64,000 bases of DNA from a bacterium (GTDB lineage: Bacteria > Electryoneota > Electryoneia > Electryoneales > Electryoneaceae): assembly GCA_963675295.2 (NCBI GenBank), contig CAXXKJ010000002.1, positions 2,400,001 to 2,464,000 on the forward strand. Direction: 5' to 3'. The number at the start of each line of letters is the position of its first letter. Position 1 is the stretch's first letter. The notes under the pieces were generated by a model. It did not search any database. It saw nothing but the letters and a program-made list of their open reading frames with translations, and was not told where the DNA came from. Shown here piece after piece: positions 2,534 through 24,371 of the stretch. The position numbers were made by a program, and so were the translations under genes.

Positions 2534-3186
2534 CGTAAATCAAACACGGTCGCGCTCTCCGGCGGCGTGTACTGAAACCGTGAATCCTCGAGTTGGACGT
2601 TCATTTCGACGTCGGTCAGCTGGTACACGGTCTGGTTGCCGGCATCATCGCGGAACGAGATCCGTTGGGTGATCCAGCGTGTGCCGTCAATGGTGACGGT
2701 GACATCGCTGACACCCAGTCCCTGTTGCTTTGGGGATAAGGTCAGTTCGTAAACATCCTCGCTGGTCTGTTTGACCGCGGCGACGTTGAACTGTTTCGGG
2801 AAATCGAACAGGAAGTCGCGTGGCAGGGAACCGGGATCGGCCTCGGCAGCGTTCTCGACAATCGCCTGGTCGCTGCCGGTGTTGTAGCGCCACAGGGTGT
2901 TGCCGTCGCAGGCAACGACCTGGTGGTCAGTCTGGTAAAGGAAACGGTCATCCCCGGCGAGCAGCATTGAACCTTCGCTGACCTCGGTTTCACCCGCCAG
3001 TCCCCACTGGAATTCCTGCCGGAAGGAGGCGGAGAAGGTGTCCATCTTCTCGTAGGTTTTCTGCACCTTGCGTATGATCTCGTCGCCGGACGGTGGCTTG
3101 GCAACGCTGGAGGAAATCGCGCTGAACGTGGCGAGGGCCACGGCCAGCAGTGTGACGACAACGCGGTGCGCACGTGTGGTTTTCAT
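2530..3186 (-). CDS. lolA: Outer-membrane lipoprotein carrier LolA
   Basis: Signal peptide, SASFRQE, VACDGNTLWRY, C-terminal F.YTPP; conserved ftsK-lolA synteny. Confidence 0.85.
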   Translation of the reverse strand: MKTTRAHRVVVTLLAVALATFSAISSSVAKPPSGDEIIRKVQKTYEKMDTFSASFRQEFQWGLAGETEVSEGSMLLAGDDRFLYQTDHQVVACDGNTLWRYNTGSDQAIVENAAEADPGSLPRDFLFDFPKQFNVAAVKQTSEDVYELTLSPKQQGLGVSDVTVTIDGTRWITQRISFRDDAGNQTVYQLTDVEMNVQLEDSRFQYTPPESATVFDLR

Positions 3187-3196
3187 GCCGCCATCC

Positions 3197-5614
3197 TCAC
3201 TCGGATTCGCCTTCCAGATTGATCAGGAACGAATCCACCTGGTCTTCGCTGATGTAGACTTCACGGGCCTTGGAGCCTTCGAACGGGCCGACGACGCCGG
3301 CCATCTCGAGCTGGTCGAGCAGGCGTCCCGCGCGGCTGTAGCCGATCTTCAGCCGACGCTGCAGCAACGATACGGACCCTTGCTGGTGACGCGCTACGAC
3401 TTTCACCCCTTCGGGGAACAAAGGATCCCGGTCGCCGGCGAGGTCGCCTCCGCCGCCGGATCCGCCGCCTTCTTCTTCCGGCGACTTCAGTTCAACCTGC
3501 TTGACGAACGCCGGTTGCTTGCGCACATGCGCGATCAACTTGTGGACTTCATCGGTTGAGATGAATGCCCCGTGGAAGCGGATCGGTGTCGGGGACGCGT
3601 TGGACAGGAACAAACCATCGCCGCTGCCGAGCAGTTTTTCCGCGCCAGCCCGGTCGAGGATGGTGCGGCTGTCGATCTTGGACGCGACCATGAACGCGAT
3701 CCGTGCCGGGAAATTGGCTTTGATCACGCCGGTGATGACGTCCACGGATGGGCGTTGCGTCGCGACGATCAGGTGTATCCCGACGGCGCGTGCCATCTGC
3801 GCAAGACGGGCGATCGGTTCCTCGACCTCGCGCGCGGCGACGATCATCAGGTCGGCGAGTTCGTCGATGATGACCACGATGTGCGGCAGCGGCTTCAACG
3901 GTTCGTTGTCGCCATTTCCGTTACCGTTGCCGTCGTCGCCATTCCCATTGTCCTTCGCTTCCTTGAGCCGGTCCTGCACGATCTTGTTGAACTCTTTCAG
4001 GTTGCGCGCGCCGGTTTCGGCGAGCAGATCGTAGCGGCGTTCCATCTCGAGCACGACGGATTGCAGCAACGCGACGGCGTTCTTCGGCTCGGTGGCGATG
4101 ACCTCGTTCAACGCTTCGAGGAACAGCAGGTGATGGCGTCGAAGCTCGGAATAGGCGCTGAGTTCGATCTTCTTCGGGTCGATCATCACCAGCTGGACTT
4201 CGTCCGGCCGGTTGCGCATCAGAATGCTGGCGATAACGGTGTTGATGCAGACCGATTTACCGGAACCGGTGGTCCCGGCGATCATCAGGTGCGGCATTTT
4301 GCCGAGGTCGACGATGAGTTCGTCCCCCTGCGCCGTCTTGCCGAGGGCGATGGAGAGGGGACGGCGTGTCGAGGCCCACTCGGCGGACTCGATGATGTCT
4401 CGCAGGTAGACGACGTCTGCGCTCTCGTTCGGGACTTCGATCCCGACCGCGCCTGCGCCGGGTATGGGTGCGATGATGCGGACCGCGACGGCGGAGAGGC
4501 TCATCGCGAGGTCGTCCGCGAGGTTCGAGATGCGGCTGACTTTAACGCCCTTGGACGGCCGCAGGTCATAGCGTGTGATGACTGGGCCGGGGTGGATCGC
4601 GACGACATTGGCCGCGACGCCGTAATCGCTGAGGCGTTCCTCGAGTTCCTTTGCCCGGCTGCGGAGCTCGTTCTCGTCCCACTCGACTTCGCCCGTGTCT
4701 TCCGAGGCAACCAGCAGCTCGGAGGAGGGGAGGACAAAGTCCTCGGGACGGGCCTTCGGGTCGCCATTCAAATCCTTCGGACCGGTCTTTTTGTCGGATT
4801 CTGCTGGTGTTCGCACGATCTCCGGCATGCCCGACTTGAATTCGTCCCAGTCGGCTTCGTCGTCGTCCAGGTCAAGGTCGAGATTGTCCGATGGAGGCGG
4901 ATCGGGCGGAGATTTCTTGCCGGGTGCGACCTTGGGTTCCGGTTTCGGACGGATCTTCGGTTTCGGTTTGCGTTCCGGCAGCTTGATCATGCTCGCGAGC
5001 GCGGCGAGGCCGGCGCCGGTAACATGCAGGATGTCGCCCCAGCTGATGCGGAGCACGAGGGTGATGTGGATCAGTGTCAACGCCGCCAGCAGCAGCGCCG
5101 CGCCGGTGATGCCGAGGAAATTGACCAGCAGGGTTTGCAGCCCGATCCCGATCAGGCCGGTCATCTCGGAGGAGTCGGGCATGCCCTGTACCAGGCGCAC
5201 CCATGACCAGATGGCGACGGCGAGGATGCTCGCGGTGAGGATCGGGAGCAGTTGGCGCTTGAGGATACGCTGCCCTTTGCCGCGCAGCAGATCGAGCCCG
5301 CCGTAGAAAAGGAACAGTGGCAGGATCAGCGACAGGAACCGTCCGAAGGTAAATTCGGAGAGGTAGAAGGCGATGTTCGCTCCGAACGGACCGAGCAGGT
5401 TTTGCACTTCCGATCCGGTGCGGCTACCCTTGGGGAAGTCATGGGCATTGTAGCTGAGCAGCGCGACGGTGATCATCGCCGCGAGAGTGATCAGCACGAT
5501 GCCAAAGACATCCTTGACCCGCGAGCCGTCGGAACCTGATCCCTTTTTGGCTTTCGAGACAGGTTTCTTTTTCGCAGGCTTTCGTTGCGTAGCTTTGGTC
5601 TTCGCTTTCGGCAT
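3197..5614 (-). CDS. ftsK: DNA translocase FtsK
   Basis: N-terminal TM domain, PHLMIAGTTGSGKS, IIDELADLM, ATQRPSVDVITG, gamma domain LQRRLKIGYSRAGRL. Confidence 0.97.
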   Translation of the reverse strand: MPKAKTKATQRKPAKKKPVSKAKKGSGSDGSRVKDVFGIVLITLAAMITVALLSYNAHDFPKGSRTGSEVQNLLGPFGANIAFYLSEFTFGRFLSLILPLFLFYGGLDLLRGKGQRILKRQLLPILTASILAVAIWSWVRLVQGMPDSSEMTGLIGIGLQTLLVNFLGITGAALLLAALTLIHITLVLRISWGDILHVTGAGLAALASMIKLPERKPKPKIRPKPEPKVAPGKKSPPDPPPSDNLDLDLDDDEADWDEFKSGMPEIVRTPAESDKKTGPKDLNGDPKARPEDFVLPSSELLVASEDTGEVEWDENELRSRAKELEERLSDYGVAANVVAIHPGPVITRYDLRPSKGVKVSRISNLADDLAMSLSAVAVRIIAPIPGAGAVGIEVPNESADVVYLRDIIESAEWASTRRPLSIALGKTAQGDELIVDLGKMPHLMIAGTTGSGKSVCINTVIASILMRNRPDEVQLVMIDPKKIELSAYSELRRHHLLFLEALNEVIATEPKNAVALLQSVVLEMERRYDLLAETGARNLKEFNKIVQDRLKEAKDNGNGDDGNGNGNGDNEPLKPLPHIVVIIDELADLMIVAAREVEEPIARLAQMARAVGIHLIVATQRPSVDVITGVIKANFPARIAFMVASKIDSRTILDRAGAEKLLGSGDGLFLSNASPTPIRFHGAFISTDEVHKLIAHVRKQPAFVKQVELKSPEEEGGGSGGGGDLAGDRDPLFPEGVKVVARHQQGSVSLLQRRLKIGYSRAGRLLDQLEMAGVVGPFEGSKAREVYISEDQVDSFLINLEGESE

Positions 5615-5743
5615 GGAATCCCAGAGTTGTCCGCGCCTAAGGTAGGGAGACCCTGCTCACCCCGCAAGCAGTGGAACGCTGGTGTGGGTAACCCTGTGAC
5701 AGTCTATATTCCGGACAGGTTTGACGAAACAGAACGTGCACCC

Positions 5744-6328
5744 ATGCGCAGGCATCTGGCAAATGTACTCACATCACTACGGTTCCCGCTGACCGCGTTG
5801 TTCCTGTACGGCTGGCTGCAACCGGAGCCCTACTGGCACCTGACGGCGACGGGAGCGTTTTTCGTTGGCATGCTGACGGACTTCCTCGATGGTCTGATAG
5901 CGCGCCGGATGATGACGGTGAGCAAGGTCGGCAGCTTCCTCGATCCGCTCGCGGACAAGGTGATGGTGGTCGCCGGGTTCTACGCGATCTTCGCGACACC
6001 GGGTTTCGCCTGGGGAGCTTGGAAATTGTGGATCGCGATTGCGCTGGGGCTGATTGTGCTGCGGGAACTGGGGATCACGGTGCTGCGTTCCGTAAAGGTG
6101 CGGTCAGACACGCCGGTTCAAACCTCGTACCTCGGCAAGGTGAAGACGACGGTGCAGATGGTGACATTGATCGTTGCCTTCCTCGGCCTCAACTTGCGTG
6201 AGTTCAGCAGTTTGCAGCTGAGCTGGTTCGAAACCCTGATCGGATTCGGGGTGATTGCGAGTGCCCTGATTGCGACCATCAGCGGCACCATCTACCTGCA
6301 GGGCGCGAAACAGACGAGTACAGTATGA
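5744..6328 (+). CDS. pgsA: CDP-alcohol phosphatidyltransferase (PgsA-like)
   Basis: ANVLTSLR, TDFLDGLIARR...GSFLDPLADK signature, GKVKTTVQM; start moved to ATG 5744. Confidence 0.85.
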   Translation: MRRHLANVLTSLRFPLTALFLYGWLQPEPYWHLTATGAFFVGMLTDFLDGLIARRMMTVSKVGSFLDPLADKVMVVAGFYAIFATPGFAWGAWKLWIAIALGLIVLRELGITVLRSVKVRSDTPVQTSYLGKVKTTVQMVTLIVAFLGLNLREFSSLQLSWFETLIGFGVIASALIATISGTIYLQGAKQTSTV

Positions 6329-9318
6329 CGGTTCACAGAGCTGGACTTCCCACCTGGTTGGTCTCCTTCGTACAAAAATCGAGCATGGTTCGTGGTCTCC
6401 TGGCGGCAGCGCTTGTGATGCTTATTGCCGGTCAGGCGAGCGCACGACTCTATCCCTCAGAGTTTCGCTGGATGGAATTCCGTTCCGGCAATGTGCTGGT
6501 CTATTACCCGCAGGGGTATGACTCGCATGCGAAGATGCTTGCGCTCAGCGGGCATACGTGGCTCGACAGCCTCGATTCGTGGTACGAGACCCGTCCGAAC
6601 TACGCGCGCATCGTGCTCAATCCGGAGAAGGACCGCAGCGAGGCGATGGCGGTGATCAACCCGACCCGGATCGAGTTGCCGATCGCGCCGGTGCTGGACA
6701 AGGGGATTCGTCCACAGGGCTCGCTGTACCTCGATCGTGTCACCGCGCACGAGTTGACGCATGTGTACCAGATGGGGCTGCGTACCGGAATCAGCCGCTA
6801 CTTGTGGCCAGTGTTCGGCGAGGCGATTGCTCCGGCGGCGCTGGCACCGGACTGGTTGCTTGAGGGGCAGGCGATCTGGACGGAATCGGTGGATGGCGGT
6901 GGACGGCTCCATTCGTCGTACCAGAGCATGATCATGCGTACGCAACTGGCGCAGCATGGCAAATTCTGGCCATTAGACCGCAATGCCGCAGCCGGACGAG
7001 TGAACCCGCCATTGAACCGGGCGTACACGGGCGGCGCGTTCCTGTACGGGTCGATGGCGTCCGAGTACCTCGGGTACCGTCACATCAACGATCTGATGGC
7101 GGAGCAGGCAGCGTGGCCCGGGTTGATGGATTGGAACTTCCGCCGCGCCTACATCGGCCGTACGGTCAGCGATCACTGGACCGCGATGGAGCGGGCGTGG
7201 CGTGACCAGCTTCGTCCCCGGATGCAGCGGCTGTATCAGTTGGGGTATGCGGTCGGGACACGATTGCTCGAGGCTCCGCGTACGTCCTACCGCCACCCGC
7301 AATGGACGGTCGAAGGCGAACTGGTGGTAAGCGAGGATTCATATGATCGCCCTAACCGTGTGGTGATGCTGTCGCAGGGGCCGGACTATGCTGAACGGCC
7401 GGTCGCGTGGACGGGATATTCGGCGCATGAGGGCGTGTCGCCGTTCCTCGAAGGGGTGATCGTGTCGGAGATCCGGCGTGACCTGTGGACGGCGGAGAAA
7501 ACGGAATCGGTGCTGGTGCTGGTGACCCGGGATGGACGTGTCAGCGACATGGCGGAGGGTGGCCTCAACGGTTGGGCGCCGGCGTTTCACACCGAATCGA
7601 TGCGATTGGCCTACGTCGGTCCACTTGAGGGCGGAGGCATGGGGCTGTGGGTCGCACCGCTGGGCATCAACGGCAAGGTGACGGGCGAAGCGGTGCTGCA
7701 CATGAGCACGATCCTCGGCTCAATCAACGACCCGGCGTGGAGCCAGGATGGCAAGCTGCTCGCGTTCGCGGCGGATCTTGGCGAAGGCGAGGCTGTGTAC
7801 GTGCTCGAGCTGGCGAAGCACAAAATGACGCGGGTCCGGATCGAGGGAGCGAATGCAACGTGGGATCCATCGTTCGGGCCGGGACGGAACTTGTGGGTGT
7901 CGGCGGACCGGGACGGCATCTTCAACCTGTACGAAGTCGAGCTGGATTCCGTTAGCGCGACAAAACGCACACGTGTGATCACCGGCGCAATGGAACCGGC
8001 GGTGTCTGCGGATGGCAGCCGTGTCGCGTATTCGCACTATACCAGCGACGGATTCTCGACGGCGTTGCTGGATTCCTCCCGTTGGTTGAACGATCCGGCG
8101 GGTGTGCAGGTGGAAGCGATCTCGGTGGCGGCGTTCGCAGAGCAGGATTCGTTGTTGAATCCCGTCGTGTTCGGGGAAACGTGGACCTATTCACCGCTGT
8201 CGCACCTGAAACCGAACTACGCGATGCCGGTCTACGCCAACGGCGACGAGGCCGGGGTCGGGCTCAGCGTGTACGGACGCGATCCAGTCGGGTTGCTGTC
8301 GTGGAGTGTGACGAGCCGGTTGGGCCTGGAATCTTCCCAACCGGATCTTGCTGCGACGGTCACCTATCGCGACCTGCCGGTGGATGTGTCGTTAAGCGTG
8401 ATTAACTACCCCGATGAATATCCGGAGTGGTCGCGGGCGACGGACGGAAACGGAAACCCGGTCGCGGTGCGGGACTATGTCTGGAAACGGCAGTGGGATT
8501 CCGGGTTGACCGCGTATCAGCCAATGTACTTCGACCACGGCCCGTGGCGAACCTCGGCGGTCCCGTTCGCCGGGCTGACCCATCGCATGCGCTACATCCA
8601 GACATCGCTCGATAAGGGCCTGGAAACGGCCGGGTATCTCGGAATCCGGCTGGGTGGAACGGTGACGCGGTATTTCTCGGCGTTACGAGATCCGGTACCG
8701 AGCCACCTGGAGTCGTTCCGGGTGATGGCGGAGGGCAATCTGCCCGGCCCGGAGCTTGAGGCGGAACTGCTGGAACTCAGCGCGCGCAAGCATGTGCCGG
8801 GACCGTTCACGAGCACGGTGTTCTCGTTCCGGGCGGCGGCGCAGATCCGGAATGGAGACCTGGACTTTTCGCGCTCGAGCGTGCGTCCGCGCGGCTACAG
8901 CGACGATAGCCTGCCGACGGCGTTGAAGGCCAACGGACGGATGGCGCTGGCCGGTGCGGAGTTTCATTTCCCGCTGTTGTATGTCGATCGTGGCTGGCCG
9001 GGATCGGGAACCATCTTTGTCGAACGGTTGACCGGATCGGTGTTCGCGGACGGCGCTACCGGCTGGGGCGGGGATTTGTCGATACCGGACTGGGCGGATG
9101 AGTATGGTGTTGCATCGTTTGGCGCAACGGTCGGCTTGCGCGGCTACCTGCTGTTCCAGGCGGAAACGCAGGTCGATGTGGGGGTTGCGTGGCGCACCGA
9201 ATACCAGAACGCGGCGGTGTTTGTCAACCTCAGCTTCCCGGAATTGTTTGCATTTGTCAACGATGCGCCTGACTGGCGGGATCTGACCCGTCGTCCCGCA
9301 CGGGGAGTGGGGCATTGA
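6325..9318 (+). CDS. Large exported/outer-membrane protein: HExxH zincin-like domain + PD40/TolB-like propeller + C-terminal Omp85-like barrel
   Basis: Signal peptide (start may be ATG 6385), AHELTHVY...PDWLLEG, PAWSQDG/PAVSADG repeats, VRPRGY and AEFHFPL barrel motifs. Confidence 0.7.
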   Translation: MTVHRAGLPTWLVSFVQKSSMVRGLLAAALVMLIAGQASARLYPSEFRWMEFRSGNVLVYYPQGYDSHAKMLALSGHTWLDSLDSWYETRPNYARIVLNPEKDRSEAMAVINPTRIELPIAPVLDKGIRPQGSLYLDRVTAHELTHVYQMGLRTGISRYLWPVFGEAIAPAALAPDWLLEGQAIWTESVDGGGRLHSSYQSMIMRTQLAQHGKFWPLDRNAAAGRVNPPLNRAYTGGAFLYGSMASEYLGYRHINDLMAEQAAWPGLMDWNFRRAYIGRTVSDHWTAMERAWRDQLRPRMQRLYQLGYAVGTRLLEAPRTSYRHPQWTVEGELVVSEDSYDRPNRVVMLSQGPDYAERPVAWTGYSAHEGVSPFLEGVIVSEIRRDLWTAEKTESVLVLVTRDGRVSDMAEGGLNGWAPAFHTESMRLAYVGPLEGGGMGLWVAPLGINGKVTGEAVLHMSTILGSINDPAWSQDGKLLAFAADLGEGEAVYVLELAKHKMTRVRIEGANATWDPSFGPGRNLWVSADRDGIFNLYEVELDSVSATKRTRVITGAMEPAVSADGSRVAYSHYTSDGFSTALLDSSRWLNDPAGVQVEAISVAAFAEQDSLLNPVVFGETWTYSPLSHLKPNYAMPVYANGDEAGVGLSVYGRDPVGLLSWSVTSRLGLESSQPDLAATVTYRDLPVDVSLSVINYPDEYPEWSRATDGNGNPVAVRDYVWKRQWDSGLTAYQPMYFDHGPWRTSAVPFAGLTHRMRYIQTSLDKGLETAGYLGIRLGGTVTRYFSALRDPVPSHLESFRVMAEGNLPGPELEAELLELSARKHVPGPFTSTVFSFRAAAQIRNGDLDFSRSSVRPRGYSDDSLPTALKANGRMALAGAEFHFPLLYVDRGWPGSGTIFVERLTGSVFADGATGWGGDLSIPDWADEYGVASFGATVGLRGYLLFQAETQVDVGVAWRTEYQNAAVFVNLSFPELFAFVNDAPDWRDLTRRPARGVGH

Positions 9319-9808: not shown

Positions 9809-10705
9809 TCATCCACCAGCCTGCCGTCTCCGGCTGTCGAGCATCAGCAGCAGCAGGGCGCGAACCAGACGGGCGGCGAGCACGGTGCTGCGTCCGGTGA
9901 GGTCGGCGTCCGGCAGCAGCTCGACGACATCCGCCGCGGCAATGTGTTTGTCCTTTAGCAGCGTCAGCCAGCGCGAAACATCTTTCCACGCCATCCCGCC
10001 TGCTTCCGGTGTGCCGGTGCCCGGGGCTTCCGCCGGGTCGAACCCGTCAAAGTCGAATGTGAGGTAGATCGGCCGGTCGCCGAGTTTGGCCAACGCGGCG
10101 TTGAAACCGTCATCGGTAGCGTCGAAGAGCAGGTTGCCCTGTTTCGCCAGCTCGAACTCGTCCTTCATGCCGGAACGGATGCCGACCATCGCGATCTTGT
10201 CCGGGCCGATGAGGTCGTAAATGCGGCGGGTGACGCAGGCGTGTGAATACTGCGTGCCGCCGTACATATCGCGCAGGTCGGTGTGGGCGTCGAAGACGAG
10301 CAGACCGAGGTCGGGTTCACGTTTCAGTGCGTGCTCGAACAACGGAAGCGTGACGGTGTGCTCACCACCAAGGCCGAAGACGGGGACATGAGCTGGGAGC
10401 GTGGCTAGTCCAAGCCGGGCTTGCTCAACGAACTCGAGGGCGTCCATGCCGAATTCGACGGCGAGGTCGCCAAGGTCGGCGTACTCGCAGGTGTCGAGGT
10501 CGAGATCGAGTGTCGGATCGTAGGTCTCGAGGTTTCCGTCTGATGCGGCGCGGATCTGGTCCGGCGCGAAACGTTGGCCCGAACGGTAGGACGCTGTCCC
10601 ATCGTAGGGCAGGCCGACGATAACGCCAAGAGCGTCCTCCGCGATGGCGGGGGACGCTCCGATATAGCCGAGTCGCTGAAACATGGGAATCGGTTTCGGG
10701 GACAT
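9809..10705 (-). CDS. speB: Agmatinase
   Basis: Ureohydrolase motifs GGEH, FDAHTD, DFDGFDP, PGTGTPEAGG; polyamine operon context. Confidence 0.92.
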   Translation of the reverse strand: MSPKPIPMFQRLGYIGASPAIAEDALGVIVGLPYDGTASYRSGQRFAPDQIRAASDGNLETYDPTLDLDLDTCEYADLGDLAVEFGMDALEFVEQARLGLATLPAHVPVFGLGGEHTVTLPLFEHALKREPDLGLLVFDAHTDLRDMYGGTQYSHACVTRRIYDLIGPDKIAMVGIRSGMKDEFELAKQGNLLFDATDDGFNAALAKLGDRPIYLTFDFDGFDPAEAPGTGTPEAGGMAWKDVSRWLTLLKDKHIAAADVVELLPDADLTGRSTVLAARLVRALLLLMLDSRRRQAGG

Positions 10706-10708
10706 GGA

Positions 10709-11584
10709 TTAGAGCAGCTTTCTGCGCAACCAGTTCGGCATGCCGAAGCTGGAGGCATGAGTTTCACGGCTCCAGTGCTTGGAGTCGCGCTCGATGAGCA
10801 GCGCGCGTTCTTCGTTTACCGTATCGAGGTCCGGCCCCTTGCTGACCAGCGCGAAGCCCCAGACGCCGCTGGGGTACATCTGCACCGGGGCGGTGTAGGG
10901 ACGCGCCTGCGGGAAGATCTTCTCCAGGCGCTTGATCACCGTAACGAGGTGGTCGTTGTGGAAAGTCGGGTCGGCGATCTGACTGGCCATGACGCCATCC
11001 TCGGTCAACGCCCGCTTGATGTCGTTGTAGAATGGTTCCTCGAACAGAGGGACGGCAGGTCCGACCGGATCGGTCGAATCAACAAGAATCACATCCCAGC
11101 TGCCCGGTTCGGTGTCGCGGACATACGCCAACCCGTCGCCGATAACCAGGTCCACGCGCGGGTCATCGTACGCTTTCGCCATCGTCGGGAGGTACTCTTT
11201 CGCGATACGTACGACTTCGTCATCGATTTCGACCTGACAGGCGACCTCGACTTCCGGGTGGCGCAGCACCTCGCGAAGCGTGCCGCCGTCCCCACCGCCG
11301 ATAACGAGCACGCGGCGTGGGTTCGGGCTGATCAGCATCGCCGAATGGACGAGAGCGTCATGGTACTGGCTCTCGAAACGTTCGGTGAGCATCACGGCGC
11401 CGTCATGAACGAGCAGTTTGCCGTCGCCCTCGGTTTCGTAAAGGTCGATCTGCTGGTACTCGGTTTTCACCGACTCGAGCATGCGGGTGATCTTCCACGT
11501 CAGGCCAACACCGGTGTCAGACCATTCGGTGAAAGTGTGCCACGCTTCGGTCGGTTCCATCAGGGATGTTTTTTCGTCGCTCAT
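10709..11584 (-). CDS. speE: Polyamine aminopropyltransferase (spermidine synthase)
   Basis: VLVIGGGDGG, VEID, DVILVDSTDPVGPA; start ATG 11584 or 11617. Confidence 0.95.
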   Translation of the reverse strand: MSDEKTSLMEPTEAWHTFTEWSDTGVGLTWKITRMLESVKTEYQQIDLYETEGDGKLLVHDGAVMLTERFESQYHDALVHSAMLISPNPRRVLVIGGGDGGTLREVLRHPEVEVACQVEIDDEVVRIAKEYLPTMAKAYDDPRVDLVIGDGLAYVRDTEPGSWDVILVDSTDPVGPAVPLFEEPFYNDIKRALTEDGVMASQIADPTFHNDHLVTVIKRLEKIFPQARPYTAPVQMYPSGVWGFALVSKGPDLDTVNEERALLIERDSKHWSRETHASSFGMPNWLRRKLL

Positions 11585-17239: not shown

Positions 17240-18205
17240 TCAATTGGACGAAGATTTCTGCTCTTCCTGCGCGACACGATCGGCGAGAGTGATCACCGCA
17301 TCGACATAATCCTCGCTGTGGTTGTAATGCCAGACCGCCTTACGCCGTCGCTTGTCGTTTTCGGCGTCAAAGCGATGGATCGCGAGGTAGTTGGCAACCG
17401 AGGCGATGGCGTCGCTGAGGTTGTCGAGATCGATGTGGTCGTCGCCGTCGCCGTCTTTCGCGTACGCCATGAATGATGACGGCAGGAATTGCGGTATGCC
17501 GTACGCACCCGCCCAGGATCCCCGTTCGTCGAGCGGGTCCATCTGGCCGTTCTGCCGCAGCTCGATCAGGGTTTTAAGTTCGCGGTACGCCCAGTTCGCC
17601 TTGGAGGATCGGCGGCGGTTCGCGGTGCTGATCGCGGCGTCGTGCTCCTCGGCGGGGAGGTCATGCAGGATGCGGTCCCAGAAGTTCGGCGCGTGGGTTT
17701 CGAGCGACTCACTGTTCAGCAGGCTGAGGGTGGCGAATACGTTGAACAGCGGGTACGGTCCCTTGTTCGACCCGAAGTCGCTCTCGATTTTGAGGATCGC
17801 GGCGACCACCTCAGCATTGACCGGCGAGGAGGCGAGTACCGTATCAAAGGTCGCCCTGTTCGCGATCAGGAACCGGTAGGTATCCTGCACGGAGGCGTCA
17901 CCCTTGAACCGTTCATAGGCTCCAGTTGCGTCCGGCTGCTTGATGTTGACCTTGAGCAGTTGCGGCAGCAGTTCGGTACGGGGGTCATCGAACATCTGAT
18001 AGACCAGCGTCGGGTCGATGCCGTCCTCGATGAGACGGTTGGTCAGCTCGTCAAACGCCGACGGCGGCTCGACAATGGAGTCATCCGCGAAGGCGGAGGC
18101 CAAGGTGATGAGCGCGAGCAGCGCGACAGCCAGGGCGGAGTGTGTCCAACGCGCGGCAGAACGGCGCGTGGTATGATGGTGTACAAATCGGGTCATGAGG
18201 GGCAA
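17240..18205 (-). CDS. mltB: Lytic murein transglycosylase, MltB family
   Basis: AILKIESDFG catalytic Glu, GSWAGAYGIPQFLPSS, EF-hand DGDGDDHID, ASVANYL, YNHS. Confidence 0.9.
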   Translation of the reverse strand: MPLMTRFVHHHTTRRSAARWTHSALAVALLALITLASAFADDSIVEPPSAFDELTNRLIEDGIDPTLVYQMFDDPRTELLPQLLKVNIKQPDATGAYERFKGDASVQDTYRFLIANRATFDTVLASSPVNAEVVAAILKIESDFGSNKGPYPLFNVFATLSLLNSESLETHAPNFWDRILHDLPAEEHDAAISTANRRRSSKANWAYRELKTLIELRQNGQMDPLDERGSWAGAYGIPQFLPSSFMAYAKDGDGDDHIDLDNLSDAIASVANYLAIHRFDAENDKRRRKAVWHYNHSEDYVDAVITLADRVAQEEQKSSSN

Positions 18206-18213
18206 ATCCGGTT

Positions 18214-19203
18214 TCAGCTCGTTGCGGAATCAGGGTCAGGCGTTCTCCGGTACTGCATCTCGATCAGGAACATGACCGCCCGGAGGACAATCTGGAACGC
18301 CTTCCGTCCTGAAATTGTGCGTGGAGTGGTCTCCTTCGCAACCCCATGGACGATGAGATTGCGGTAATCGGTGAGCTCGGCGAGGAGTTGCTCGAAGTTG
18401 GCGGGCCAATCTCCCAACCGTTCCTCGAGAAACATCAGTTTGGCACGTTTTTCGTTCATGCCGCGTTTGCGTCCGCGTTTGCGAATCATGGAGAAATCGA
18501 CTCCGACACGATGAAGCATCGCGTCGTAATAGAAGTCGAGCGCCATGGTCAGCATCACGATGGCGGCGAGATCCTCTTCTTGGCGAACGAGGCTGGCACC
18601 GTTCTGCAGGTACTGCAGCCACAACGGTTTTTCCCAATCGCCGGTTTCACCGAGTGCCATCCAGTGGATTTCCGCCGGTTCGGCGGGACGGTTCTTCTCC
18701 AGGATGCGGCTGAAGAGGATAAAGTTTTCCTCGCTGGTAGACAGTGGCAGTAATACCTGGTTGTTCGCGATCCACTGCCGGGCGGAACGGTTGCCATCCA
18801 CGATGAAGAAGACTTCCGGAGGACGGCGGTAACGCATGCCGAAATCGACGATCAACAGGTCATTGGGCGCGGATTGAACGTGTCCGTTGGTGGAAAAACC
18901 GGGCACGAGCGGGATAGCGTGCACCGAGTCAATGAACAGTTCGGGGTACTCGCGGTAATAGAGCAGGTAGCCGTCGACGTAAGGGAAGCGTGTATCACAT
19001 TTCGGGCAGGCGGTTTCCGCTTCCAGTCCTTCGCAGTTGTGTTCGAAATCGTGGAAGCACTTGGGACAGCGGATGGTGCGAATCGGAAGCATGGTCACGG
19101 GTTTCGGCGCGGAATCCGCCGTAGCCGTATGCTCGGCGATCTCATCCATCGCCGGACGGCCCTGTTGGATTGGAATCTGGCGTGACGCGTTCTTCGCTGG
19201 CAT
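18214..19203 (-). CDS. Hypothetical protein: Zn-ribbon + beta-rich middle domain + HEPN-like C-terminus
   Basis: CPKC...CPKC; DFGMRYRRPPEVF...IHWMALG; helical C-terminus with YRNLIVHG; start uncertain. Confidence 0.7.
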   Translation of the reverse strand: MPAKNASRQIPIQQGRPAMDEIAEHTATADSAPKPVTMLPIRTIRCPKCFHDFEHNCEGLEAETACPKCDTRFPYVDGYLLYYREYPELFIDSVHAIPLVPGFSTNGHVQSAPNDLLIVDFGMRYRRPPEVFFIVDGNRSARQWIANNQVLLPLSTSEENFILFSRILEKNRPAEPAEIHWMALGETGDWEKPLWLQYLQNGASLVRQEEDLAAIVMLTMALDFYYDAMLHRVGVDFSMIRKRGRKRGMNEKRAKLMFLEERLGDWPANFEQLLAELTDYRNLIVHGVAKETTPRTISGRKAFQIVLRAVMFLIEMQYRRTPDPDSATS

Positions 19204-19315
19204 GTTGTTATCCAACAATCAGGAGTGATGTTTCATTGCACTACGGAAAAGTGTCCCTCGTTCGTCAAGAAGATACGCGCGGAAGGGTGTAGTGTGAACC
19301 CTGGACTCCGCAAAA

Positions 19316-21043
19316 CTACAAAAAGTCACTCCAGTCCAAACCCAGCGAAATCAACGTGTCGGTGGTATCACGGGACGATGAGCCATCTTCGAAGAAACGA
19401 GCGATTCCGCCGCGTACCCAGACCCTCATCCCGGCGATGGGGAACAGATCGACCCGTGCGGACGCGCTGAGCTGTTCGGTTGAGGTGGACCGGAAGGGAA
19501 ACTCGCCGGGTCCGTGGGTCTCGACCACAGTGACGCGCGAACCGGAGTCGTATTGCTTCACCCCGGCGACTGTCGCACCGAATGCGACCCACTGAGCGAG
19601 CTTGCGTTGGGCGTTCAGGCTAAGGCCATGGCCGGACCCGTCATGCTCAAAGGAGGCGGTGTAGCGCGCGCTGGCGAGCACGGTCTCGAACTGACGGGCG
19701 AGGTAGAGGCGGGACGTGTACACGTTTTCCGCCCGACGGGATGCGTCGATGTCACGACGCAGGCGGAACGAGCCGTCAACACTCCATGACGATCGTGAAC
19801 CGGCGAACACTCGAAGAAATAGGGCCTGGCGTTGCTCGGGGTTGGTTTCGCCAGCGTCGGGTTCGCTCCAGTCGGCGGCGAGGCCGGTGGAGAGGGTGAC
19901 GCGTTGGATAGTGTGGACCAGGGCGAGCTGACCGCCGGTGACACCGCCGGGGTCGGTGCCGAAGGCGAGTGTCGGGCGTGCGTGGAAGGTGGAAAAATCC
20001 TGCGTTGCCCGCCAGCCGCTGGCGACGACACGTGTGTAATCCGCTAACCGATTCGTGAACTCGAAACCGCCACCCATCGTACCCGCAGATTGCGTTGCGA
20101 ACTCGCTGTGGAATTCCAGGCCGCGATCGGGGTGCTTGACGTCCCAGCCGATCCCGGCGGTCGAGAACTGATTGTTGGCGAAACGGAAGCGGGCGTTGTC
20201 GACTGCGGGTGAGATGTCTTCGAGGAACTCGGTTGCTGCGCCGGTGAGGCCGAGCTCGCCGAGGTTAAACGGCAGGTGCAACGTGACGTGGCCGCCAGCG
20301 TGCCGTGCGGGAAGCTGCACGATGTCCACGCTGCGATCCTCGGCGTGATCGCCCTGGGTGGCGTACGGGTAAAGGGGAGCGTCGGCGTTGGCTTGAAACG
20401 AGTCGAACTCCTGCAGACCGGCCCAGAGGTCAACGCGTGCCAGCTGCCGGGTCGAACCAGGTCGATCGAAGGTGCTGCTGACCGCCGCGCCTTTCCAGGC
20501 CCAGCCTTCCTCGGCGCTGAGGTTCATGCGGATGCCGTCACGGGGGCGGCGCAGCGCGGCAAAGGCGTCTGTCGTGGAGGACCACGACGGTGTGCCGGAG
20601 ACAGTCCAGCCGAGTCCCTGATCCACCTGGAAATCTCCCGCGATAAGGCGGCTGCGGTGATAGGTGGCGGTGAGGGATGCGCGCCAGAGGTCGAGCACGT
20701 TGCGCTCGCCGCTGTCGCGGTGCATCAGCAGACCGATCATGACCGATTCGCGGTCCATGGTCAGGCGGGCATAATGCGCGGGAAACGGTTCAGTGTCCGG
20801 ATTCAGCACCCGGGCGCGAAACTGAGTGCCGGTGGGTTTCGATTGCAGCCACTGCCACACCGATTCCTGGTTGTTGCCAGCAACGTCCAGCAGGAGGGAG
20901 TATTCATCGCTGGGTTCGACCGGGGTGAACTCGTCCATGATGTAGAGCGAATCCTGTGCGGACGAGGTGCCGGACGCATGGAGCAGGCACAGCGCGAACA
21001 GCAGCGCAAGGACGGTTGGACGGATGGCTGGTGCGTGCGTCAC
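19316..21043 (-). CDS. Outer-membrane beta-barrel protein resembling the barrel part of FCB ComEA/HhH-associated proteins
   Basis: Signal peptide, IAGDFQVDQGLGW motif, alternating beta strands, near-terminal LGLDW; no HhH repeat seen. Confidence 0.55.
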   Translation of the reverse strand: MTHAPAIRPTVLALLFALCLLHASGTSSAQDSLYIMDEFTPVEPSDEYSLLLDVAGNNQESVWQWLQSKPTGTQFRARVLNPDTEPFPAHYARLTMDRESVMIGLLMHRDSGERNVLDLWRASLTATYHRSRLIAGDFQVDQGLGWTVSGTPSWSSTTDAFAALRRPRDGIRMNLSAEEGWAWKGAAVSSTFDRPGSTRQLARVDLWAGLQEFDSFQANADAPLYPYATQGDHAEDRSVDIVQLPARHAGGHVTLHLPFNLGELGLTGAATEFLEDISPAVDNARFRFANNQFSTAGIGWDVKHPDRGLEFHSEFATQSAGTMGGGFEFTNRLADYTRVVASGWRATQDFSTFHARPTLAFGTDPGGVTGGQLALVHTIQRVTLSTGLAADWSEPDAGETNPEQRQALFLRVFAGSRSSWSVDGSFRLRRDIDASRRAENVYTSRLYLARQFETVLASARYTASFEHDGSGHGLSLNAQRKLAQWVAFGATVAGVKQYDSGSRVTVVETHGPGEFPFRSTSTEQLSASARVDLFPIAGMRVWVRGGIARFFEDGSSSRDTTDTLISLGLDWSDFL

Positions 21044-21930
21044 GGCGCGACCGGGTGTTGCTGCCAGTCGAGGCCGAAGGCGTGACTCCAGCCCAGCCAG
21101 GGGTGGTAATCGTACGCGCCCATGCCGGTCAGTCCCGACCAGCGGAGGGCGAGTCCGAGGTGGATGCGTTCCGGCGCGCTGTCGTATCCAGCACGGATCG
21201 CGAGGGCGTCCAGCATCCAGATCTCAGCTCCGGCGCGGACGGTGAGGTCGCGATGCTCCATCCACTCGATTTCAGCGAGCAGAGTCAGTTTCTCGAGCGG
21301 CGTGTAGCTGCCGGCAAGGTGGAGCATGTGCGGCGGGTGATCGTCGGTAAAGGTCGAGAGCGGAGTGCTCGCCAAGTTCAGCGCAGAGGCACCCACCGAC
21401 CAGCTCCGGGTGGTGTAAAACAGGCCCAGGTCTCCGCTGAACGTGTTGTCGTTGCCGTAGTTCTTCACCTGAACCTGGGTAACCGACAGCCCGGCTCCGA
21501 GTTGCAGGGAACCGGGGAGGGGATACGAAACGTTCAATCCGGCAGTTCGTTCACTGTAGAGCGTTTGCCCGAAGCCGGAGAGCCAGCCGCCGAGGGTGAG
21601 GTCTCCCAGTGGCGCGGCGGCCGCGAGCTTAAACCGATCAAATTCCGGCATGTCAAAGGAACGGGAAAACCCGGCGCTTACGGAATAGCCTGTGATCGTG
21701 GTCCCGGCGGCGGGGTTGAGGATGCGGCTGCCGGCGTGGTACGGATCGGCGACGGGGCTGACGGACGTACCAAGCTGCAGCAGTGACGGCCCACGTTCCT
21801 CGAGCAGGGCGGAGGCTGTGGTTGTCAAGAAGAGCAGAGAAATCGCGGCCAAGACCGTAGTTCGAACGGTTCGGAGAAAATTCGTATATTTTGGAATCAC
21901 ATTCTTGACATGAGCTGACGTTGTGCGCAT
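21040..21930 (-). CDS. PorV/PorQ-like outer-membrane barrel protein
   Basis: Signal peptide, ILNPAAG, DLGLFY, AIRAGY, YHPWLGWSH; overlaps the downstream gene by 4 bp; start uncertain. Confidence 0.6.
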   Translation of the reverse strand: MRTTSAHVKNVIPKYTNFLRTVRTTVLAAISLLFLTTTASALLEERGPSLLQLGTSVSPVADPYHAGSRILNPAAGTTITGYSVSAGFSRSFDMPEFDRFKLAAAAPLGDLTLGGWLSGFGQTLYSERTAGLNVSYPLPGSLQLGAGLSVTQVQVKNYGNDNTFSGDLGLFYTTRSWSVGASALNLASTPLSTFTDDHPPHMLHLAGSYTPLEKLTLLAEIEWMEHRDLTVRAGAEIWMLDALAIRAGYDSAPERIHLGLALRWSGLTGMGAYDYHPWLGWSHAFGLDWQQHPVAP

Positions 21931-22091
21931 GGATGGTTCCAGGCTGATTTGATGGCCAAAAGAAGATAACATGTGGCTGACGGGATCACATGGAACCGAA
22001 CTGGAGCGCGTTCAACGGGCTCTCTTTTGTTTTAGGATACGAATTCCGTGGACGAATCACGGAATAGTGTAACGGCCTGCAACGGGATCAA

Positions 22092-22255: not shown

Positions 22256-23722
22256 ATGAATTACCAAAAGTCCAAAACGTTCGCCCGGAACATCATTGGC
22301 GCAGGCGCCCTCGTGCTGCTGATCAGCTGCACGGACGGAACCCGTACGCCCGTGGATCCCAGGCCGGTGGACGTTGACCTGACGGAGATAGCTGCGCGGG
22401 ACACGTTGCGCGTGATTACGCGGAACCACCCGTTGACCTACTATCTCTACAAGGGGACTCGCCGTGGTTTCGACTTCGAGCTGATTCAGAAGTTTGCCGA
22501 CGAGCAGAACCTCGTCTTGGAAGTGGTGCTACCTCCGACGTGGAACGATATGATTCCGTACCTGCTTTCTGGCAAGGGCGATATCATCGCGTCGATGATG
22601 ACGGTGACGCCGGAGCGTGAGGAGCGGATTGACTTCACGCGTCCGTACAAGGATGTGTGGCAGGTTGCCGTTGGCCGCAAGGATGCTCCACCGCCGCGTA
22701 CGAAGGAAGATCTCGCGGGCCGGAGTGTGCTCGTGCGGCAGGGCTCATCGTACGATGAGAACCTGCGTGCGTTGCGGGACAGCCTTGGTGTCGATTTCAG
22801 CATCCAGTACCACGATGAAGTGAACGAAGTGGAAGATCCGGTGCAGCTCGTGGCGAACGGGCAGGCGGCGTTGACGGTGGTTGACAACACGATCGCGCAG
22901 CTGGAGCAGCAGTTCTATCCGGATCTGCGGATCGGTGCGTCGATGAGTGAGCATCAGCAGATTGCGTGGGGCGTGCGTCCCAACGCGCCGGAGCTGCTGG
23001 AAGCGTTAAACGAGTTCCTCGATCGCTATGATCGCAGCGCGTTCTTTAACATCCTCGAGAAGCGGTATTTCGAGAGTCCGCAGCGGTTCCGTATTCATCG
23101 CACCCACCAGATGGCGTTGAACCAGGAAGGCCGCATCAGCCGGTTTGACAACTTCTTCCGTGAAGCGGAATCGGATGTCGGCATCGACTGGCGTCTTCTG
23201 GCGGCGCAATCGTACCACGAAAGCCGGTTCTACCCGGAGCAAGTGTCGTGGGCGGGCGCGGTCGGCCTGATGCAGCTGATGCCGGAGACGGCGGCGACGC
23301 TTGGTGTCACGGACCTGTACGATCCGGAACAGAACATTCTCGGCGGTGCCCGGTATCTGCGCCAGTTGCTGGACATCATGTACGAGAATCTCGGTGAGAA
23401 CTCCGGCGATTTCCGTAACCAGATCAGTTTCGCGCTGGCGGCCTACAACGCCGGTCTCGGACATGTGTTTAACGCGCGCCGGCTGGTGCGCGAGCAGAAC
23501 GGCAACGCGGACAACTGGGAAGAAGTGGCGCAGGCGCTGGTGTTGCTTGAGCAGCCGGAATACTATCGCCGTGACGGGTATGCGTTCGTGCGTGGTGAAC
23601 AGGTCCGGCGCTATGTGTACGACATTTTGCACCGGTACGATATTTTTTGTGACCTGATCGAACGGGAACCGACTGAGAACGATCAGGATCCGGATGAGAC
23701 GCTGGTGTTGACGATGCTGTAG
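22256..23722 (+). CDS. mltF: Membrane-bound lytic murein transglycosylase F
   Basis: Lipobox-like LISC, SBP domain (GFDFEL, FTRPY), SLT domain DWRLLAAQSYHESRF, GLMQLMP, AAYNAG. Confidence 0.92.
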   Translation: MNYQKSKTFARNIIGAGALVLLISCTDGTRTPVDPRPVDVDLTEIAARDTLRVITRNHPLTYYLYKGTRRGFDFELIQKFADEQNLVLEVVLPPTWNDMIPYLLSGKGDIIASMMTVTPEREERIDFTRPYKDVWQVAVGRKDAPPPRTKEDLAGRSVLVRQGSSYDENLRALRDSLGVDFSIQYHDEVNEVEDPVQLVANGQAALTVVDNTIAQLEQQFYPDLRIGASMSEHQQIAWGVRPNAPELLEALNEFLDRYDRSAFFNILEKRYFESPQRFRIHRTHQMALNQEGRISRFDNFFREAESDVGIDWRLLAAQSYHESRFYPEQVSWAGAVGLMQLMPETAATLGVTDLYDPEQNILGGARYLRQLLDIMYENLGENSGDFRNQISFALAAYNAGLGHVFNARRLVREQNGNADNWEEVAQALVLLEQPEYYRRDGYAFVRGEQVRRYVYDILHRYDIFCDLIEREPTENDQDPDETLVLTML

Positions 23723-24008
23723 GAGAGGACCAATCAGGGTACAACTCTGATACTATTCCCAATTGTATTGCCCCGGCTGGATGACTGGCTGGGGCATTGT
23801 GTTTCTGGCAGGGATGAGTGGCAGTCTGCCTGATTGGCAGATCGCGGCAGAGGTACGTGTGGAGCGAGTCTCGGGTGCGAGTTGCCGTTTCTTCCCGTGT
23901 GCAGTACCTTTCGCCGTCTTTTCCGGCACCGGGGTTGAAATGGCCTTGTGTTTGCGATGTGACTGGAAAAAAGAGTTGCACGAACAGTTTGTCCTGGAGG
24001 ATGTGACC

Positions 24009-24371
24009 ATGCCGACGTACACCTACCAATGCACGGAGTGCGGGCATGCCTTTGATCTGTTTCATGGCATCATGGAAAACGGGACGCGTCCGTGCCCGGT
24101 TTGCGGTGCGGAAGCCAAGCGCCGGATCGGTGCGGGAGCCGGCCTGATTTTCAAGGGCAGCGGGTTCTATGAAACCGATTACAAGCGCAAGGGCAAAGGT
24201 TCGGACAACGGCCTGATATCCTCGGTGGGCAGCAACGGTCACGCGCACAGCAACGGCAGCAGCGCGGAGTCCAGCAATGGGACCGCGAGCAGTAATGGAA
24301 CCAGCGCGCCGGCGAGCGAATCGAAGAAGCCGGAGAGCGCGAAGAAAACGGCGGACACGAAAGCCGCCTGA
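24009..24371 (+). CDS. FmdB-family zinc-ribbon protein
   Basis: MPTYTYQCTECG...CPVCG...FKGSGFYETDY; GGAGG Shine-Dalgarno. Confidence 0.92.
   Translation: MPTYTYQCTECGHAFDLFHGIMENGTRPCPVCGAEAKRRIGAGAGLIFKGSGFYETDYKRKGKGSDNGLISSVGSNGHAHSNGSSAESSNGTASSNGTSAPASESKKPESAKKTADTKAA

Follow-up and report, generated by a model that had tools for sequence, protein, structure and literature searches.

The locus described here raises the question of what a gene that looks like a ribonuclease (RNase) effector is doing within a run of cell-envelope genes. The window analysed is a stretch of 64,000 nucleotides (contig CAXXKJ010000002.1 of assembly GCA_963675295.2, positions 2,400,001 to 2,464,000), and the gene, which we call T, occupies 18214..19218 on its minus strand, with the stop codon at 18214-18216. 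It is present as one copy in its 4.8-Mb genome. The reading frame gives 334 amino acids from a TTG at 19218; an alternative start, the ATG at 19203, lies six codons in, gives 329 amino acids and is the one used by P0001, a database protein 95% identical to T. Residue numbers below are those of the 334-residue version. The product is predicted to be soluble and cytoplasmic and to consist, from N- to C-terminus, of a Cys4 zinc ribbon, a beta-sandwich and a HEPN domain. This architecture had been proposed in an original prediction made by a model from the sequence alone, and the motifs that it quoted were all located: CPKC-x16-CPKC, the middle segments IVDFGMRYRRPPEVFF (residues 123-138), TSEENFILFS (residues 161-170) and IHWMALG (residues 184-190), and RNLIVH at 18346-18363 (codons cgc aat ctc atc gtc cat, 18363-18346). 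The gene end that it gave, 19203, stands as an in-frame ATG start, the longest open reading frame (ORF) reaching on to the TTG at 19218, and the host-like G+C content that it mentioned was confirmed (0.57-0.59 for T versus 0.52-0.65 across the surrounding 14 kb). Conservation was followed in three alignments, A1 with 27 close homologues, A2 with 15 sequences including relatives of 19-24% identity, and A6 with 19. The parts of T are as follows.

19081..19218, minus strand: N-terminal tail (residues 1-46), predicted to be disordered and little conserved
18982..19080, minus strand: Cys4 zinc ribbon (residues 47-79) of four short strands, C51-x2-C54-x16-C71-x2-C74
18634..18921, minus strand: beta-sandwich (residues 100-195) with a predicted H-type-lectin / phage tail-fibre-knob (gp53-like) fold
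18235..18633, minus strand: HEPN domain (residues 196-328), with H1 199-212, H2 216-237, insert 242-268, H3 275-291 and H4 304-324
18535..18537, minus strand: D228, an acid in helix 2 (LDFYYD) that does not vary in A1, A2 or A6
18415..18495, minus strand: basic insert between helices 2 and 3 (residues 242-268, IRKRGRKRGMNEKRAKL...), a candidate RNA-binding surface
18346..18363, minus strand: Rx4H motif, R286-N-L-I-V-H291, at the C-terminal end of helix 3

The first step was to ask what the C-terminal part is. In an AlphaFold2 model built from A1 (mean predicted local distance difference test, pLDDT, 80.9, the first 46 residues being the weak part), it forms six helices over residues 199-324, with pLDDT above 90 across most of that span, and H1 to H4 correspond to the up-down four-helix core of the HEPN superfamily. 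A structural scan with VIA, which is independent of Foldseek, covered 48,161 PDB representatives, and the figures given here come from the 50 matches listed. The best solved match of the HEPN domain was 2hsb (Z 8.6, root-mean-square deviation, rmsd, 3.4 over 110 residues), followed by 1ufb (7.7), 1wol (7.2), 4nqf (7.1) and the HEPN domain of sacsin, 3o10 (6.8); at least 15 of the 50 matches are titled HEPN, Csm6/Csx1, HepS, LsoA, SO_3166 or AbiA and align with about residues 196-327, and HepT-type toxins are also found among the matches to the helical part. For a model of P0035, a distant relative 25% identical to T (pLDDT 85.8; predicted template modelling score 0.81), the top four matches were all HEPN, at Z 9.4 (1ufb), 9.4 (2hsb), 8.4 and 8.2. 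At the profile level, hhalign aligned T with a set of ten RiboL-PSP HEPN proteins from genomes of its own phylum at 88.9% (E 2.4e-6), with RNxIVH aligned to RNxIAH and helix 2 aligned too, and with eleven zinc-ribbon-DUF4145 (RAZR-like) proteins at 36.7%. The Pfam model HEPN_RiboL-PSP gave 12.1 bits for T and 21.3 bits (2.8e-4) for its best relative, against a cut-off of 28.4, and matched five of 15 members of the T family below threshold.

According to the available portion of Anantharaman 2013 (PMC3710099), active HEPN domains carry an Rx4-6H motif at the end of helix 3 or the start of the loop to helix 4 and a conserved acid in helix 2, and inserts between helices 2 and 3 are common. T fits these three rules, as helix 275-291 ends with R286...H291, helix 216-237 contains D228 and an insert occupies residues 242-268. 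R286, H291 and D228 are invariant throughout the alignments (27/27 in A1, 15/15 in A2 and 19/19 in A6), and D232 is nearly so. Since the fold matches, the three structural rules and the profile match to RiboL-PSP agree, the C-terminus of T is taken to be a predicted HEPN domain with an intact catalytic set, nearest to, yet outside, the RiboL-PSP family; both the HEPN call of the original prediction and the conservation of R and H on which it had made that call depend have thus held up. Every residue expected for an active metal-independent RNase appears to be kept (R286-x4-H291, N287 and D228), and activity is predicted. The insert is helical, with 10 lysines or arginines among its 27 residues (isoelectric point, pI, 11.7), and R246, G249, R250, N255, E256, K257, A259, K260 and L261 are unchanged in the close family, features that would suit an RNA-binding surface. 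HEPN proteins typically act as dimers with a composite active site; a homodimer prediction for residues 44-330 (two copies, alignment A1, run without controls) scored 0.01 against a mark of 0.42 and counts neither for nor against a dimer of T.

The two domains preceding the HEPN part were next assigned in the same way. For the zinc ribbon, the Cys4 pattern is accompanied by a profile match to the LysW-type ribbon 5k2m_E (E 0.001), with the conserved Y80-x-D82-G83-Y84 directly after it; the zinc-ribbon models of Pfam match T only under their thresholds. For the beta domain, the VIA scan returned LKA1 gp49 (4ru4, Z 7.2), discoidin I (2w94, 7.0; 7.0-7.7 including P0035), Helix pomatia agglutinin (HPA; 2ccv, 6.9, rmsd 1.6 over 69 of 99 residues), the R1 pyocin fibre (6cxb, 6.9; pyocin fibres overall 6.7-6.9), the Pam1 tailspike (7eea, 6.9), AP22 gp53 (4mtm, 6.3; 6.3-6.9 including P0035) and SLL-2 (3wmp, 6.1), and the beta domain of P0035 returned the same set of lectins and fibres at Z 6.5-7.7. 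Foldseek searches of PDB and BFVD gave the same families (probability 0.9-1.0, E 2e-3 to 0.1), with no match of T at E<=0.001 in either; the top 50 from BFVD are dominated by tail-fibre and 'H-type lectin domain' proteins, and those with probability 1.0 are named H-type lectin or gp53-like. A Pfam scan of T at E<=1 listed 12 families, none of them lectin or fibre. The ribbon call of the original prediction was therefore borne out by pattern and profile, and its H-type-lectin/gp53-like call at the level of fold, through HPA, discoidin I, AP22 gp53, pyocin fibres and tailspikes. H-type lectins of the HPA type form a trimer with a site for N-acetylgalactosamine or N-acetylglucosamine at the protomer interfaces; the polar residues H100, Y130, N153, Q154, R171 and E191 of the beta domain of T are conserved in the close family only. 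The N-terminal tail has pLDDT below 50 for residues 8-46 and an identity of 22.5% within the family of the window. A reading of T as a secreted protein or cargo of the type IX secretion system was ruled out, because none of the 27 homologues (0/27) has a hydrophobic signal-like N-terminus.

How widely T occurs was examined by sequence searches. Among 5.8 billion proteins, a word-indexed search brought up 27 clusters of homologues at E<=1e-3, each unnamed or called 'hypothetical', and an exhaustive phmmer search of 1.84 billion representatives found 16 matches at the same threshold, including full-length relatives at 19-29% identity. C71, C74, R286, N287, H291 and D228 are unchanged in all 27 sequences of A1, and C51, C54, C74, R286 and H291 in all 15 of A2. 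When distant relatives are included, C51, C54, C74, D82, G107, P198, W200, D228, R286 and H291 are still invariant, and these motifs have therefore been selected in a family wider than the Electryoneota-like lineage of the window. As judged from the alignments, T is a real conserved gene whose motif conservation exceeds chance. Against Pfam, NCBIfam and PADLOC, T yields nothing above threshold; below it, Pfam lists weak zinc-ribbon models and HEPN_RiboL-PSP (E 0.18). PADLOC gives no match for T at E<=10, nothing for the relatives P0035, P0036, P0040 and P0041, and a single RTasHEPN match (0.006) for P0038. Sequence searches of PDB at E<=10 with profiles from A1 and A2 returned zinc-ribbon chains only, with neither HEPN nor lectin chains among them. 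No description of this architecture was found in the available text of papers that mention HEPN together with lytic transglycosylase, with H-type lectin, or with zinc ribbon, tail fibre or lectin. The combination of zinc ribbon, lectin-like domain and HEPN is therefore undescribed so far, in keeping with the statement of the original prediction that it did not recognise the architecture.

The distant relatives are rare singletons, one of them in a Desulfobacteraceae metagenome-assembled genome (MAG). A profile search for more of them added P0042 only, and P0035 as a query found no match in genome contigs. A search with P0039 gave two metagenome loci, of which one, L093 (11 kb), is informative: it carries a relative of T that is 54% identical to P0039, in the company of an AAA/STAND-like ATPase, ORFs without family and, about 1 kb upstream, a tyrosine integrase (gene spans 3157-4332, 5404-6336, 6344-6844 and 10466-11236, all on the plus strand). 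At the same locus, a gene for a GGACT/AIG2-like gamma-glutamyl cyclotransferase starts 8 bp after the relative of T, and the ATPase has a weak PADLOC match to mad8 (4.4e-6).

The distribution of T was established in 79 genomes of its phylum, in which we distinguish the family of the window (f1) and two further families (f3 and f4). T is found in 24 of the 79, namely the genome of the window and all 15 others of its family, 6 of 9 in f3 and 2 of 4 in f4; none of the 50 genomes of the other six families has it. All 15 T loci in a species-level genome collection are from uncultured MAGs, including Candidatus Electryonea clarkiae and a Calditrichaeota bacterium, Electryonea being a member of the FCB group. 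Three matches are irregular, and T may be damaged in those genomes. In G035 (C124:20391-21196) the match to T is split over two overlapping frames, possibly by a frameshift or an assembly error. Those in G037 (C103:11318-12247) and G022 (C6:12603-13547) have one in-frame stop each, probably in an N-terminal extension, and ORF calls give intact genes of 349 and 311 amino acids in these two genomes.

A maximum-likelihood tree of 19 T proteins and three distant relatives recovers f3 (99/100), f4 (99/100) and the genus of the window (100/100), and follows the host family with 3 label changes, the minimum, as against a mean of 10 when labels are shuffled. Two control families of the defence-type HEPN class, DUF4145 (15/79 genomes) and RiboL-PSP (12/79), are unlike T scattered over most families of the same genomes. 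The rate of evolution of T is close to that of its neighbour MltB: within the family the identities are 53.8% for T, 51.4% for MltB, 32.9% for the PorV-like protein and 27.9% for the large outer-membrane protein encoded upstream, and between f1 and f3 they are 34.2% for T and 34.3% for MltB. The domains are about equally conserved within the family (zinc ribbon 55.9%, beta domain 55.7%, HEPN 63.6%), and T thus has no fast-evolving sensor domain of the kind expected in an arms race. Taken together, these results describe an old gene, present once per genome and dispensable, that belongs to a single lineage of a candidate phylum (Electryoneota-like, FCB group).

The surroundings of T were compared at 21 loci, namely that of the window and those of 20 relatives, over about 13 kb each (7.4 kb for one that lies at the end of its contig). 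L035 and L047 were left out of the counts since the ORF filter made no call for T there, with overlapping long ORFs in GC-rich DNA; the 19 counted loci comprise 11 from f1, 6 from f3 and 2 from f4, and gap sizes depend on longest-ORF start calls. In the window, the neighbouring genes are these.

17240..18205, minus strand: mltB-like lytic transglycosylase gene (SLT_2, Pfam E 2.8e-45), downstream of T
19316..21043, minus strand: gene for a 575-residue secreted protein, probably outer-membrane, without Pfam match; T begins 97 bp past its end
21040..21972, minus strand: gene that opens the conserved cluster, for a PorV/PorQ-like outer-membrane protein (NCBIfam PorV_fam E 9.4e-8, below cut-off; PorP_SprF E 1.2e-4)
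22256-23722, plus strand: MltF-like SBP_bac_3+SLT gene, 3 kb upstream of T on the other strand

The mltB gene starts 8 bp (TTG) or 17 bp (ATG) after the stop of T, its product matches the NCBIfam MltB model at 5.9e-33, under the cut-off, and it lies directly downstream of T in 17 of the 19 loci. The order PorV/PorQ-like protein, 550-660-residue secreted protein, T and MltB, with a CheY-type receiver ahead of T in f3, is kept on one strand in 17/19 loci, all those of f1 and f3, which are the families sampled best, with gaps of -26 to about 190 bp; the PorV-like gene is two genes upstream of T in the 11 loci of f1 and three in the 6 of f3. In these six f3 loci the receiver gene stands between the large protein and T, and Amidase_3, MurI and a Mur ligase follow MltB; five of them show a 4-bp overlap between T and the gene before it, and all six an overlap of 1-26 bp between T and MltB. 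The two f4 loci show T, a PfkB kinase, Amidase_3 and SurE. All three families thus have a peptidoglycan enzyme in company with T: MltB in f1, MltB and Amidase_3 in f3, and Amidase_3 in f4. The 64-kb window as a whole is core housekeeping DNA (Rho, LolA, FtsK, PheST, SmpB, RNase Y, KdtA), and neither an integrase, a transposase nor a known defence gene was found within it. No gene for an MNT nucleotidyltransferase lies beside T in any of the 19 loci, the neighbours being the outer-membrane protein or CheY upstream and SLT_2 or PfkB downstream. The original prediction was accurate on each of these points of context: the 8-17 bp upstream of mltB, the nearby mltF and the lack of an MNT antitoxin. 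A toxin-antitoxin pair was ruled out as an explanation because T loci have neither an MNT gene nor a small conserved partner, and the CheY receiver was rejected as a dedicated partner of T because three f3 genomes without T keep it.

Some further observations concern the neighbouring genes themselves. The large outer-membrane protein (550-690 residues) has no Pfam family in f1 and diverges very fast, with 38% identity inside one genus; its equivalents in f3 have an N-terminal ComEA-type HHH_3 domain, and its Atlas look-alikes are clusters of DUF6029 (0.93) and HHH_3 (0.92), which are leads only. The pair of PorV-like and large secreted proteins (19316-21972 on the minus strand of the window; 7388-10050 in L039) precedes mltB in at least three families of the phylum, and in f2, a family without T, and f3 it also precedes an Amidase_3 amidase. 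The f3 receiver measures 128-136 residues by longest ORF (L039, 6894-7283 on the minus strand, with equivalents in L040, L042-L044, L046 and L097-L099). Just downstream of the MltF-like gene of the window, at 23763-24371 on the plus strand, a 202-residue protein is encoded with an FmdB-type zinc ribbon (Zn_ribbon_8, E 2.5e-13), which by these searches is unrelated to the ribbon of T.

From these results we tentatively favour, among several readings, the one in which T is a self-contained, gated RNase, most likely tied to the state of the envelope or the peptidoglycan. The HEPN site would be kept silent, and would be released when ribbon and lectin-like domain bind a signal and/or change the assembly state. 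Rather than a phage protein, the signal would be a physiological, envelope-related one, for example a cytoplasmic amino-sugar or muropeptide that the peptidoglycan hydrolases encoded nearby produce. That T is an RNase, that it is gated and what type of signal it reads are all inferred here. A physiological role is weighed slightly above defence because of the fixed site, the presence in 15/15 genomes of the family, the tree that follows the host family and the housekeeping surroundings, and because T evolves at the rate of MltB with its sensor domains evenly conserved; the kept gene order and the peptidoglycan enzymes that accompany T in all three families point the same way. The interpretation given in the original prediction is accordingly retained in part, with its three domain calls, the lack of MNT, the G+C content and the novelty upheld and its defence flavour weakened by the single copy, the host-family tree, the fixed site in an envelope operon and the MltB-like rate.

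Several points weigh against such a role. One is that the PorV-like, outer-membrane protein, CheY, MltB, amidase and MurI genes are all retained in three T-less f3 genomes of 93-95% completeness, with 20-65 bp separating the receiver gene from mltB, and that tblastn found no significant remnant of T in them (only E 3.3 and 9.1). Similarly, in f2 the gene for the large outer-membrane protein is directly followed by that for MltB in 4/5 loci, with the amidase next in three of those. Since the operon is intact in T-less genomes, T is not required by it and the receiver is not a private partner of T; by comparison of these loci, T appears to be a removable insert in an older operon that does without it. 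The fixed position of T within one lineage may merely mirror inheritance. In addition, most prokaryotic HEPN proteins with an intact motif reportedly belong to conflict systems, and L093 hints at a mobile or conflict setting of the wider family, a context that rests on n=1 as it is the only informative locus. On the structural side, T scores below the threshold of every curated HEPN or lectin model; an H-lectin-like fold is no proof of sugar binding, as it is also that of the trimeric knob in phage fibres; and VIA itself warns that Z values in the range 6-9.4 may reflect common arrangements, helical bundles especially, which is why the scan was repeated on P0035.

The closest competitor, which we regard as possible if somewhat doubtful, is an abortive-infection defence carried by T alone, in the manner of RAZR (PD-T7-4) or HepS. 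The ribbon and the knob-like domain would sense a phage structural protein, for example through co-assembly with a knob of like fold from a fibre or tailspike; this would lead to oligomerisation and switch on the HEPN RNase. An envelope operon with constitutive expression would have taken up the gene in the distant past. Several features of T would suit this: the nearest structures of its middle domain are phage and pyocin receptor-binding parts, it is dispensable and absent from some genera, a distant relative lies near an integrase and a STAND/AAA-like ATPase, and the family is rare, with only those 16 representatives among 1.84 billion. Precedents are found, as far as the available text of the reports goes, in RAZR, with an N-terminal Cys4 ribbon and a divergent HEPN activated around phage ring proteins, and in HepS, a lone HEPN with siphovirus tail-tip proteins as the trigger, which matches T at Z 5.7-5.9 (9oik). 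However, T has been fixed at a single site over family-level time with a tree that follows the host family, and every genome of one family has it, while RAZR homologues occur only here and there in the genomes compared. A fast-evolving sensor domain would be expected in such a system and none is seen, the 64 kb around T lack mobile-element or defence neighbours, the hhalign match to the RAZR-like set is the low one given above, and PADLOC, which recognises L065, a positive control from the phylum, as PD-T7-4 (1.7e-14), is silent on T and on five of its distant relatives.

A bolder form of the envelope reading, which we think unlikely, is that a domain derived from a tail fibre or H-type lectin was recruited to the cytoplasm as a ligand sensor, and that the RNase reads the turnover products of the co-transcribed MltB and amidase, anhydro-muropeptides or amino sugars, and responds by cleaving RNA. 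If true, this would be a direct wall-to-RNA signalling route built from parts usual in phage-host conflict, and we know of no precedent for a route of that kind.

Quite improbable, too, is that T is a constitutive or operon-specific RNA-processing enzyme which trims or destabilises the polycistronic envelope-operon mRNA or another housekeeping RNA, its N-terminal domains being RNA- or partner-binding modules without any sensing of a signal. Zinc ribbons frequently bind nucleic acid, the HEPN domain is basic (pI 9.5) with its conserved K/R-rich insert, the evolutionary rate is housekeeping-like, and the short or overlapping junctions of T are compatible with operon co-expression. Against this, the operon is unchanged where T is missing, in the three f3 genomes and in f2; to our knowledge the lectin / tail-fibre-knob fold is no RNA-binding module and constitutive HEPN RNases are rare in bacteria. 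Finally, a non-nuclease HEPN serving as a nucleotide- or protein-binding scaffold, as in HEPN-fold proteins of the kanamycin nucleotidyltransferase, MtlR/YggD or GlnE type, is very unlikely in spite of MtlR, YggD, ANT(4') and DrrA being among the structural matches (Z 4.5-6.2), since T keeps the R, N, H and helix-2 acid across 19-24% identity, whereas the non-catalytic branches of HEPN are said to be without a conserved Rx4-6H, being tabulated as 'No' or lacking the R.

Cas13, Csm6, many toxins and several recently solved phage sensors made of one protein (RAZR, HepS) all act through HEPN RNases, and how these stay silent and are then triggered is an open question for the whole class, to which T adds a sensor module. 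With a cell-wall metabolite as its trigger, T would couple the turnover of the envelope to the decay of RNA; with a phage fibre as the trigger, it would defend the cell by offering the phage, as bait, a copy of the fold that the phage itself uses to bind receptors. The immediate reach of T is limited, because its family has few members, all of them in uncultured bacteria.

Among known systems, T can be compared with RAZR / PD-T7-4, the ring-activated zinc-finger RNase that wraps around phage ring proteins (Nature 2026, PMC13017515; statements on RAZR follow the available part of that paper). T too is one chain with an N-terminal Cys4 ribbon and a C-terminal HEPN and has no antitoxin, and in RAZR the ribbon is the sensor and activity is set by the assembly state. 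The differences are several. The HEPN of RAZR is a DUF4145 with R146...H154, whereas T has a classical RNxxxH motif; T, unlike the L065 control, matches neither Pfam DUF4145 (E<=1) nor PADLOC PD-T7-4 (E<=10); it has a lectin-like domain of about 96 residues between ribbon and HEPN and is about 100 residues longer than the zinc-ribbon-DUF4145 proteins of the phylum (198-269 residues); and its distribution goes by host family, whereas that of RAZR homologues is patchy (15/79 genomes). Candidates of the RAZR type with zinc ribbon and DUF4145 were noted at L063-L073 (for example L065, 1126-1824 on the plus strand), of 198-269 residues, with 11 examined ORFs starting with CxxC; the genome of the window itself has no zinc-ribbon-DUF4145 protein.

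HepS, an abortive-infection HEPN protein of the Gifsy-1 prophage that is tail-tip-activated and tetrameric (Nature 2026, PMC13043305, from the text available), resembles T as a lone HEPN without antitoxin that both senses and acts, and is among the structural matches given above. It differs in being prophage-encoded and, going by that text, in having neither ribbon nor lectin-like domain, whereas T is chromosomal, in a housekeeping region. HepT/MntA shares with T the HEPN fold and Rx4H (5yep, 7ae2 and 8xdj match at Z 5.3-6.6), but T has no MNT neighbour in 19/19 loci, is 2-3 times longer and carries two extra domains. RiboL-PSP-HEPN (PF18735) is the closest HEPN family to T by sequence, with aligned RN-x-I-[AV]-H motifs, but T stays at 12.1 bits, below its cut-off, and the RiboL-PSP proteins of the phylum are shorter (153-230 residues against 334) and scattered (12/79). 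The H-type lectins (HPA, the discoidin I C-domain, SLL-2) and the gp53-like and pyocin knobs have the same small beta-sandwich as that predicted for T; they show no sequence-level match to it, and they are extracellular lectins or C-terminal virion parts, whereas the copy in T is internal, cytoplasmic and fused to a nuclease. T thus joins the self-contained HEPN sensor-effectors with a sensor module, ribbon plus lectin/knob fold, that is unreported, and with an operon-embedded inheritance by host family that is unusual for such a protein.

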